From Escherichia coli (lineage in GTDB: Bacteria > Pseudomonadota > Gammaproteobacteria > Enterobacterales > Enterobacteriaceae), in the NCBI RefSeq assembly GCF_003334815.1, contig NZ_QOWO01000093.1: a stretch of DNA of 1,796 bases. The stretch is one strand, 5' to 3'. Positions 178 through 1,361 of this stretch are shown here, piece after piece. Both the position numbers and the translations under genes were made by a program. The notes beneath the pieces are model-generated. The model ran no database searches. It saw only the letters and a program-made list of their open reading frames with translations, and had not been told where the DNA came from. The first letter of the stretch is position 1; every line of letters begins with the position of its first letter.

Positions 178-257
178 CTATCTTGTTATCTTGTTATCTT
201 GTTATCTTATTATCTTATTATCTTATTATCTTATTATCTTATTATCTTGTTATCTTA
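178..257 (+). repeat. Tandem array of ten 8-bp iterons TTATCTT[G/A]; putative centromere-like site (parC/parS-type) upstream of the par operon
   Basis: Direct read: CTATCTTG at 178-185, then perfect units at 186, 194 (G-variant), 202, 210, 218, 226, 234 (A-variant), 242 (G) and 250 (A), with a degenerate copy to about 266. Head-to-tail with no spacers. The same unit recurs downstream of the operon. Confidence 0.88.
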
Positions 258-278
258 ATTAATCTATAAATCAAATAC

Positions 279-301
279 TTAACAACTTATTAAGTTGTTA
301 A
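279..301. promoter_or_regulatory. Perfect 23-bp palindrome TTAACAACTTA-T-TAAGTTGTTAA; putative operator overlapping a candidate promoter
   Basis: Direct read: 279-289 is the exact reverse complement of 291-301 around the central T at 290. It shares its 11-bp half-site with the second palindrome at 341-371. Confidence 0.6.
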
Positions 302-307
302 TATAAC
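279..307 (+). promoter_or_regulatory. Candidate sigma70-type promoter for the par operon (-35 TTAACA at 279-284, 17-bp spacer, -10 TATAAC at 302-307)
   Basis: Hexamers match the consensus TTGACA/TATAAT at 5/6 and 5/6 with a 17-bp spacer. An alternative is -35 TTGCAT at 316-321 with a weak -10 near 339-344. Either is pattern matching only, with no transcript data. Confidence 0.3.
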
Positions 308-340
308 AAAAATAATTGCATGATTCGCGTTCAGATGGCA

Positions 341-371
341 ATATTAAGTTGTTAACTTAACAACTTAATAT
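341..371. promoter_or_regulatory. Perfect 31-bp palindrome ATATTAAGTTGTTAA-C-TTAACAACTTAATAT; putative operator or 5'UTR hairpin directly upstream of the parA RBS
   Basis: Direct read: 341-355 is the reverse complement of 357-371 around the central C at 356. Same half-site as the palindrome at 279-301 but with the arms in the opposite order. It ends immediately before GGGG (372-375) and the ATG at 381. Confidence 0.6.
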
Positions 372-380
372 GGGGCTATA

Positions 381-1007
381 ATGATAATAGTATTAGGTAG
401 TCAAAAGGGTGGGGTAGGTAAAAGTACACTGGCGGTATCTATAGCTGCGTATCTGATGTCACTAGGCAATAGAGTGATTATTGTCGACGCAGATGACCAG
501 AAATCAGTATTAACCTGGTACAACAATCGCCCTGAAGATCTCCCTCATATTCCGGTTACAGGCGCGACAGGTAACATCAAAGCCATGTTAAAGGAACACG
601 AAAAATCCTATGATTTTGTTATTGCAGACTGTGCTGGCCGTGATAGCGCAGAAATGCGTAGTGGATTGATGGCCGCAGATGTATTCATTTCTCCTTTGCG
701 CCCATCTCAGATGGACCTGGATGTTGTGCCTCATACATGCTCCGTTTTTACAGCAGCAAAAGATTTTAATGAGGATGTTCGGGGATATCTCGTTTTAAAC
801 ATGACGCCCACAAATATGTTTGTTAATGAAGCCAATGAGGCAGCTGAAGTACTTAAGGATTACCCTGAAATGCATCTGGCAAACTCCCGGGTATGTGATC
901 GTAAAGCACATCGAGATGCTTGGGCCGAATCAATGACAATTTTTGAAACGCAAAATGATAAAGCCCAGCAAGAAATCGAAGCGTTAGTGAAAGAGGTTAT
1001 TCTGTGA
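381..1007 (+). CDS. parA: ParA/MinD/Soj-family partition ATPase, small type Ib-like form (208 aa, no N-terminal HTH extension)
   Basis: Deviant Walker A KGGVGKST at residues 9-16 (nt 405-428); A'-like motif IIVDADDQ; Walker B-like hydrophobic stretch ending in Asp (DFVIADCAG). The 208-aa length matches small ParAs such as ParF. An in-frame TAA at 366-368 makes ATG 381 the first start. GGGG at 372-375 is a possible SD 5 nt upstream. Confidence 0.93.
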   Translation: MIIVLGSQKGGVGKSTLAVSIAAYLMSLGNRVIIVDADDQKSVLTWYNNRPEDLPHIPVTGATGNIKAMLKEHEKSYDFVIADCAGRDSAEMRSGLMAADVFISPLRPSQMDLDVVPHTCSVFTAAKDFNEDVRGYLVLNMTPTNMFVNEANEAAEVLKDYPEMHLANSRVCDRKAHRDAWAESMTIFETQNDKAQQEIEALVKEVIL

Positions 1008-1306
1008 GAAATAGAGCAAACACTTCACCTCGTGACGAGGCAGCATTTATTAACGGTGGCACGGCTGGCCTTGATAATACCAAAAAGTCATCAGATAAAT
1101 CATCGGTTGTAAGCAAAGCAAAACCAGTGAGTATTTCTTTTTTTGAAGAAAACCTAAAAGACATTGATGCCCTTATAACGGCTGAGATGGTTTCAGGTAA
1201 AGGCAGAGTGAATCGTTCTGATGTTGTCAGGGCGGCGGTAGAAGCACTTAAAACACTATCAAAAACAGAGGTATCACGATTGATAGCAGAAGTAAAACAA
1301 AGATAA
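1004..1306 (+). CDS. Putative centromere-binding partner protein (ParG/ParB-of-type-Ib-like): ribbon-helix-helix C-terminal domain with a basic, probably flexible N-terminal tail
   Basis: GTG start at 1004 overlaps the parA stop as GTGA. Strong SD AAGAGG at 991-996 sits 7 nt upstream. The C-terminal half reads as strand (KPVSISFFEE), helix A (NLKDIDALITAEMVS), G-x-N/S/T-type turn (GKGRVNRSD) and helix B (VVRAAVEALKTL), the RHH pattern. The N-terminal ~45 residues are low-complexity and rich in Ser/Lys/Arg. The position right after a small ParA fits a type Ib partner. Confidence 0.8.
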   Translation: MRNRANTSPRDEAAFINGGTAGLDNTKKSSDKSSVVSKAKPVSISFFEENLKDIDALITAEMVSGKGRVNRSDVVRAAVEALKTLSKTEVSRLIAEVKQR

Positions 1307-1310
1307 CACC

Positions 1311-1361
1311 TTGTTATCTTGTTATCTTGTTATCTTGTTATCTTGTTATCTTGTTATCTTC
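1311..1361 (+). repeat. Tandem array of six 8-bp iterons (5 x TTATCTTG plus terminal TTATCTTC), same unit and orientation as the upstream array; putative second centromere-like site
   Basis: Direct read: partial TTG at 1311-1313, then units at 1314, 1322, 1330, 1338, 1346 (G-variant) and 1354 (C-variant). The array begins 5 bp after the ORF2 stop codon. Confidence 0.88.

Follow-up and report, generated by a model that had tools for sequence, protein, structure and literature searches.

Do two small overlapping genes, set between two arrays of the same 8-bp repeat, make up a plasmid partition system, and if so, is it a new one? The question is raised by a 1,796-bp stretch of Escherichia coli DNA (contig NZ_QOWO01000093.1 of assembly GCF_003334815.1), the whole of which is referred to here as the window. 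In the list of its open reading frames (ORFs), parA (381-1007, + strand, ATG start) encodes 208 aa and parB (1004-1306, + strand, GTG start) encodes 100 aa, with an overlap of 4 nt. A preliminary description of the window had placed a 208-aa deviant-Walker-A ParA and a 100-aa partner between two same-orientation arrays of 8-bp units. This arrangement is borne out, and the coordinates given for it were right apart from a few bases of register. The cassette is the published pESBL-type parA-parB-parS system, already known and not new, and we are highly confident in reading the window as the pESBL-type type Ib partition system of I-complex plasmids.

The evidence begins with identity. Between 381 and 1306, none of 926 nt differs from parAB of pESBL-EA11, a plasmid of E. 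coli O104:H4. ParA (WP_000587689.1) and ParB (WP_001245884.1) have the accessions of two adjacent pESBL-EA11 genes and identical translations; the pESBL orthologues are O3K_25822 (ParA, with an N-terminal extension) and O3K_25817 (Hp7, ParB). The likeness extends to the octamer (GATAACAA / TTGTTATC), the arrays on both sides, the place beside impB and, with few substitutions, the promoter region with its palindromes. Only array architecture differs.

The pESBL par locus has been characterised experimentally (Genes 2020;11:1207; PMC7602700). In that study, transposon sequencing (Tn-seq) in a delta-oriT background showed that mutants in a ~1-kb region of pESBL disappeared when selection was lifted. 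Only with an N-terminal extension of 31 aa did the ParA ORF take in the Walker A motif, and the 100-aa Hp7 was described as lacking homology to any known ParB and as having "no predicted DNA binding motif". When cloned, the locus conferred stability on mini-F pXX705, which is otherwise unstable, and foci of Hp7 (ParB) fused to green fluorescent protein (GFP) formed solely in pESBL-carrying cells. In electrophoretic mobility shift assays (EMSA) the number of complexes equalled the number of octamers per probe (seven for 7 direct units, eight for 4 inverted plus 4 direct units), and ParB affinity was comparable on direct and inverted-plus-direct probes. The authors classed the system as type Ib, with parS arrays up- and downstream, and likened it to those of pB171 and pSM19035 (PMC7602700). 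Identity with pESBL parAB, taken with these experiments, supports two proposals of the preliminary description: that the cassette is a type Ib partition system, and that its arrays are binding sites for the partner protein, the EMSA having been made with an identical ParB on the octamer repeats of pESBL.

Two points weigh against this reading. Deletion of par left pESBL stable, although with a growth and competition defect. The pnd toxin-antitoxin and re-conjugation compensate for the loss of par in pESBL, so a stabilising effect is clear only in the heterologous mini-F test (PMC7602700). In addition, a generic promoter scan of the window missed the promoter-like element at 316-344 that is discussed below, because its proposed -10 hexamer is weak.

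The ParA sequence fits the partition reading. The protein has a deviant Walker A motif KGGVGKS (residues 9-15), VIIVDAD (32-38) and a Walker B motif FVIAD (79-83). With Walker A at residues 9-15 of 208 there is no room for an N-terminal domain, and an N-terminal helix-turn-helix (HTH) domain is indeed lacking. ParA thus has the features given for type Ib ParA proteins in PMC9178275, namely small size (about 200-250 aa), a deviant Walker A and no N-terminal HTH. In a phmmer search against solved structures, ParF of TP228 (4dzz) aligns over residues 6-207 against 7-202 (E 2.3e-14), and the TP228 ParA entry 5u1g also aligns at full length (E about 2e-14). Delta of pSM19035 (2oze) matches residues 3-43 only, around Walker A (E 7e-4). 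Judged by sequence, ParA is a ParF-like small ParA, its homology to ParF being distant.

The family searches also bear on an alternative: that this is no partition system, ParA being a MinD/MipZ-like or other positioning ATPase and the repeats being replication iterons or meaningless microsatellites. The best NCBIfam model, ParA_partition, matches at full length with 155.8 bits, short of its curated cut-off of 180. The Pfam matches are to MipZ, CbiA and AAA_31, with MipZ best by E-value, and ParB has no Pfam match. These results speak for the alternative. However, the NCBIfam matches to MinD, BcsQ and similar models cover the P-loop only, and both the MinD and the MipZ matches are limited to the N-terminal part of ParA, in contrast to the full-length match to ParF, which supports the earlier reading of this ORF as a partition ATPase. 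The repeats are kept beside parAB in unrelated backbones and, in I-complex plasmids, lie away from replication genes. Above all, partition function and ParB-octamer binding were shown directly on the identical locus (PMC7602700). Because of the published mini-F stabilisation and EMSA, we consider a non-partition role effectively refuted and extremely improbable.

ParB is the less readily recognised partner. Searches against Pfam and NCBIfam gave nothing significant, sequence and profile searches against solved structures gave no match, and there is no detectable sequence similarity to ParG. A search of 5.8 billion proteins found 164 relatives, every one of them about 100 aa long and of Enterobacterales origin, with identities as low as about 55%; a few of these bear the NCBI name "ribbon-helix-helix domain-containing protein". 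In an alignment of 28 members, down to 56% identity, the N-terminal peptide MRNR..DE.AFINGG.AG is conserved and largely invariant. Behind it, residues from about 22 to 37 form a variable linker, which leads to an invariant K-A-K-P-V-S-x-S segment and a conserved R-x-N-R-S-D-V-V-R-A-A segment, in which most of RVNRSDVVRAA is invariant.

Structure prediction points to a ribbon-helix-helix (RHH) fold. The AlphaFold2 monomer model (mean predicted local distance difference test score, pLDDT, of 75, and >80 from residue 41) shows residues 41-47 as extended and places helices at 48-64, 71-84 and 87-99. The ribbon of an RHH protein exists only in the dimer, and therefore two copies of residues 36-100 were fused via (GGS)8 for 20 family members. 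The tandem-fused C-domain model of ParB (predicted template modelling score, pTM, of 0.77) has residues 40-46 (KPVSISF) as a beta-strand in each copy, followed by three helices. Strand pairing in this model is to be read with the caveat that artificial fusion favours association of the copies. ParB is thus predicted to be an RHH2 dimer, with the beta-alpha-alpha order and paired strands of two subunits that are typical of the Arc/MetJ/CopG superfamily. The predicted domain comprises the strand 40-46 and helices 48-63 and 71-82, to which an additional C-terminal helix (87-100) is joined. This agrees, at the level of prediction, with the partner having been called RHH-like. A 100-aa protein of predicted RHH2 fold encoded downstream of parA is also what is expected of a type Ib partner, which is small, non-HTH and usually RHH.

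The two genes have evolved unequally. In L005, L007, L009 and L018 (the first three are described below), ParA is 92-98% identical to that of the window, and ParB identity falls to 57-58%. ParA is far more conserved than ParB. The changes in ParB fall mainly in the linker and the helices, and there is no variation in much of the N-terminal peptide or in the putative DNA-reading strand.

The arrays themselves are well defined. Tandem Repeats Finder (TRF) located period-8 repeats at 179-257 (9.9 copies, 95% matches, score 130) and at 1310-1360 (6.4 copies, 100% matches, score 102). We set the register by the published consensus GATAACAA, i.e., TTGTTATC on the + strand. In this register TRF and an octamer map give an upstream parS array of 10 contiguous 8-bp units (175-254, + strand), in the order TTGCTATC, three TTGTTATC, five TTATTATC and one TTGTTATC. 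The downstream parS array (1311-1360, + strand) comprises six perfect TTGTTATC units (1311-1358) and a partial unit. All direct units of both arrays have one common orientation. A single inverted, imperfect octamer, GATAACAC (1302-1309, - strand), overlaps the parB stop codon and forms a short inverted repeat with the first direct downstream unit. The window holds 20 octamer-like sites (at most one mismatch), whereas 500 shuffles gave 2.2 on average and never more than 7, and just one of the 20 lies in the coding region.

Five successive upstream units (207-246) have the same G-to-A variant, TTATTATC, with consensus units on either side. Units of this type number 0-2 in other plasmids with identical ParA and ParB. 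The run suggests a recent local amplification of one variant unit.

Seven plasmids that encode identical ParA and ParB all have the two arrays, in a constant orientation, with 4-10 upstream units and, downstream, one inverted and 5-16 direct units; the exception is pESBL, with 5 inverted units downstream. An inverted octamer at the parB stop codon was found in 7 of the 7 close variants examined. Length differences among near-identical database matches of the window are mostly multiples of 8, which indicates that the arrays grow and shrink by slippage-type expansion and contraction. Compared directly, the window has 10 upstream units (five of them TTATTATC) vs 7 in pESBL, and one inverted and 6 direct downstream units vs 5 inverted and at least 10 direct ones. 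In pESBL a Tn2 inverted repeat interrupts the downstream array, whereas the window has an unrelated element of ~290 bp, bounded by inverted repeats, ~60 bp past the array. In pESBL-EA11 (L004 about 870-1010, reverse strand) the array stops precisely where the terminal inverted repeat of Tn2/Tn3, GGGGTCTGACGCTCAGTGGAACG..., begins, so the transposon, which carries blaTEM-1, inserted into the centromere array itself.

Diverged loci retain the layout (identities are to the window proteins). Klebsiella plasmid pKF3-94 (IncFII; ParA 97.6%, ParB 83%) has about 10 upstream units, an identical promoter palindrome and 6 downstream units. The Citrobacter-type loci L005 and L006 (ParA 95.7%, ParB 57%) have about 11 degenerate units upstream and 8 or 4 perfect units downstream. 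Pantoea stewartii loci L007 and L008 (ParA 92.3%, ParB 58%) have about 5 degenerate upstream units and, downstream, 2 inverted and 2 or 3 direct units. Erwinia locus L009, beside impB (ParA 94.7%, ParB 71%), has 9 perfect upstream units and the same palindromes. Downstream it has no octamer array and instead about six TTAACAACTTAATAAG-type sites, which represent the palindrome motif. Repeats flank the operon on either side in each of the 12 loci examined, which span ParB identities of 57-100% and different backbones. In the Citrobacter-type, Pantoea and Klebsiella loci the upstream and downstream repeats use the same octamer; Erwinia has octamers upstream and TTAACAAC-type sites downstream. 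The dual-array layout is conserved.

This conservation bears on whether both arrays work. Only one might be the functional centromere, the other being redundant, either as a product of slippage or duplication or as a spare that mainly affects incompatibility or ParB titration. The pESBL locus still works with its downstream array cut by the Tn2 end, the downstream octamers are replaced by different palindrome-type sites in Erwinia, and many type Ib systems use a single site, such as TP228 parH, which is upstream only (PMC9178275). Yet the presence of two-sided repeats in every one of the 12 loci argues for selection on both, and ParB bound direct and inverted-plus-direct probes with comparable affinity (PMC7602700). 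We regard a single working centromere as unlikely.

The region between the upstream array and parA contains sites that the preliminary description had omitted, as it had the inverted unit at 1302-1309. An inverted-repeat search and a hexamer map identify palindrome 1, TTAACAACTTA-T-TAAGTTGTTAA (279-301), with iteron-like half-sites and a TAACAA/TTGTTA core; an inverted near-octamer, TATAACAA (302-309), directly follows it. Palindrome 2, ATATTAAGTTGTTAA-C-TTAACAACTTAATAT (341-371), found by the same inverted-repeat search, has 15-nt arms that are 100% complementary. The half-sites of both palindromes have the TTGTTA/TAACAA core of the octamer. Between them, a pattern search finds a promoter-like element (316-344, + strand) with -35 TTGCAT (316-321), a 17-nt spacer and -10 CAATAT (339-344). 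Palindrome 1 sits immediately 5' of the -35 hexamer, and palindrome 2 overlaps the -10 hexamer and the predicted transcription start.

This layout recurs across the family. A TTGNNN-17-CA(A/T)TAT element ends 32-37 nt 5' of the start codon in 6 of 6 loci compared, by pattern search in the window, pESBL, L005 and L007, and by direct reading in L009 (TTGTGC-17-CAATAT) and pKF3-94 (TTGCAA-17-CAATAT). In all six, an inverted repeat with iteron-like halves shares part of its left arm with the -10 hexamer, even where the repeat sequence differs. Palindrome 2 is identical in Erwinia L009 and Klebsiella pKF3-94 despite ParB identities of just 71-83%, and L005 and L007 have another inverted repeat of iteron-like halves, TTATCTTA-A-TAAGTTAA, at its position. 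Palindrome 1 is kept in pESBL with two substitutions, and related sites occur in L009, L005, L007 and pKF3-94. Because the overlap of promoter and palindromes is conserved across six loci, the palindromes are more likely to serve as operator than the upstream direct array. Palindrome 2 (341-371) is most likely the autoregulatory operator, and palindrome 1 with the near-octamer (279-309) would form part of it. In type Ib systems at large the centromere-binding protein, and not ParA, exerts the autoregulation, and for the present system the overlap in six loci is indirect evidence of this.

The upstream direct array (175-254) could itself be an autoregulatory operator as well as a centromere, as the preliminary description expected and as is parC1 of pB171 par2. 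The repeat arrays of pSM19035 serve as both operators and centromeres, and cooperative binding of ParB to 10 units could spread to, or loop onto, the promoter 62 nt downstream. The pB171 upstream array regulates par transcription, as cited in PMC7602700, which leaves the pESBL case undecided. However, the array stops at 254, the best promoter-like element is at 316-344, and the sites that overlap its -35 and -10 hexamers are the palindromes. Their position is kept in the diverged L005 and L007 even with a degenerate upstream array, and the spread of 4-10 upstream units where the proteins are identical is more in keeping with a tolerant centromere than with a tuned operator. An operator role for the array is possible, and in our judgement doubtful.

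We propose, with the operator placed at the palindromes, the following working scheme. Transcription would start from the weak sigma-70 promoter at 316-344, and ParB would repress it via the bracketing palindromes at 279-309 and 341-371; comparative anatomy suggests both steps. The upstream direct array would then be mainly a centromere. ParB binds the octamers specifically and cooperatively, at about one complex per unit, as shown for the identical pESBL proteins (PMC7602700). If ParF/ParG and delta/omega are a guide (Barilla et al. 2007, cited in PMC9178275; PMC9499535), RHH dimers of ParB would assemble the partition complex by coating the contiguous arrays that flank the operon, and contiguity of several repeats would matter. 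The conserved, largely invariant and arginine-rich N-terminal peptide of ParB would contact nucleoid-bound ParA-ATP and stimulate its ATPase, and plasmid copies would thereby be moved apart over the nucleoid. Slippage in the arrays appears to change their length without loss of function.

The palindrome-type motif stands in for an octamer array downstream of the Erwinia L009 operon, and this suggests that octamers and palindrome-type motifs are both ParB sites. We tentatively extend this to one RHH ParB that reads two related site types with separate roles, fast-slipping direct octamer arrays as centromeres and palindromic TTAACAAC-type sites as operator, an extension in which our confidence is low. 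The same Erwinia observation means that the two site types may be interchangeable as centromere.

By tblastn, the ParB family is present in 1,495 of 72,556 PLSDB plasmids, with 485 at 99% identity or above and 770, mostly Klebsiella, at 80-90%; 1,133 of the 1,495 are conjugative. The neighbourhoods include impB, a RepB replicon, an integrase and IS26-family copies on both sides. This variety, together with the published mini-F stabilisation, fits the portability that had been claimed for the cassette. In L006 (CP077332.1), parAB and its arrays lie at 668-3706 between two IS26-family (DDE_Tnp_IS240) transposase genes of opposite orientation, a layout reminiscent of a composite transposon, by which the cassette could be mobilised. 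Since the putative DNA-reading strand of ParB does not vary, and about 1,500 plasmids from different replicon groups (I-complex, Klebsiella IncFII and others) have the octamer in common, there might be partition-mediated incompatibility between plasmids that are compatible by replicon typing.

The IncI1 prototype R64 (NC_005014) was considered as a carrier and rejected: it has no ParB homologue, and its ParA is only 24% identical. R64 matches the window at 1-99 and 1705-1796 only. Its slot by impB (L002 45383-48225) encodes ParM/ParR (type II) and a 214-aa ParA (24% identical) with a 102-aa partner. The parAB genes of R64 have been said to be 100% conserved in pESBL (PMC10286972), a statement that the R64 sequences examined do not bear out. 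The par slot beside impB appears to be exchangeable among I-complex plasmids.

The window is 100% identical to a segment of RCS85_pI, a conjugative plasmid (MOBP/MPF_I) of E. coli ECOR 3, with colicin Ia, psiB, ardA-like and impCAB-like genes, a gene content that identifies it as an I-complex plasmid. At 4-153, an ORF with a family match encodes the C-terminal 49 residues of an ImpB/UmuC-like Y-family polymerase. An Rfam scan of the window found no RNA family, and a generic terminator scan found no terminator.

To the right of the cassette is the ~290-bp element mentioned above (1416-1707, core 1419-1704), with 47-nt imperfect inverted repeats at its ends that are 79% complementary; these ends are similar to the terminal repeats of the Tn3 family (GGGGTCCGC...CCCACGCTAAG). 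Unannotated copies are present in 2,162 PLSDB plasmid records and in many different surroundings, and their matches begin and end at the inverted repeats. The element looks like a non-autonomous miniature transposable element. As a candidate part of the cassette it was rejected, given its own inverted repeats and its independent occurrence in those records. No target duplication is visible beside it in the window. Relative to the plasmid FWSEC0008 unnamed17 (L015 2019-2741), the window lacks 631 bp directly right of the element. Missing with it are an ORF of 64 aa and the initial ~405 nt of a conserved hypothetical gene of 196 aa (WP_000194586 / WP_000194575 in R64, at R64 34566-35062), so that 1705-1796 of the window is what remains of a gene truncated at its 5' end. 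A deletion next to the element would account for the absent target duplication.

The cassette keeps clinically important extended-spectrum beta-lactamase (ESBL) and multidrug-resistance I-complex plasmids, and many Klebsiella IncFII plasmids, in their hosts, and it is therefore relevant to plasmid persistence and to anti-plasmid strategies. The nature and key activities of the system were already published in 2020. What is added here is the predicted RHH fold, the candidate operator, the natural range of array size, the extent of the family and the correction for R64; these are refinements and leave the overall picture unchanged.

The ParA of the cassette matches ParF of TP228 at full length, but ParB is unlike ParG in sequence and has an extra predicted C-terminal helix. 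The centromere units here, 8 bp long and contiguous, flank the operon on either side, whereas TP228 parH is a single upstream site. The repeats of pB171 par2 (parC1-parA-parB-parC2) are clustered 6-bp units rather than contiguous octamers. That system resembles the present one in that ParB-binding repeat arrays flank a type Ib parAB on both sides, a comparison drawn in the preliminary description and made also by the authors of the pESBL study (PMC7602700); parC1+/parC2+ constructs of pB171 have been described (PMC4270457).

Delta/omega of pSM19035 shares with the cassette an RHH protein (here a predicted one) on contiguous short repeats, of 7 bp there and 8 bp here. According to PMC9499535, omega binds as one dimer per repeat, in direct and inverted orientations, with several arrays per plasmid, and ParA activation needs at least 4 contiguous repeats. 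In contrast to ParF, delta matches the window ParA around Walker A only, and full-length homology is lacking. The hosts differ too, Firmicutes for pSM19035 and Enterobacterales here. Omega is a global regulator, encoded apart from delta and with arrays in the promoters of other genes.

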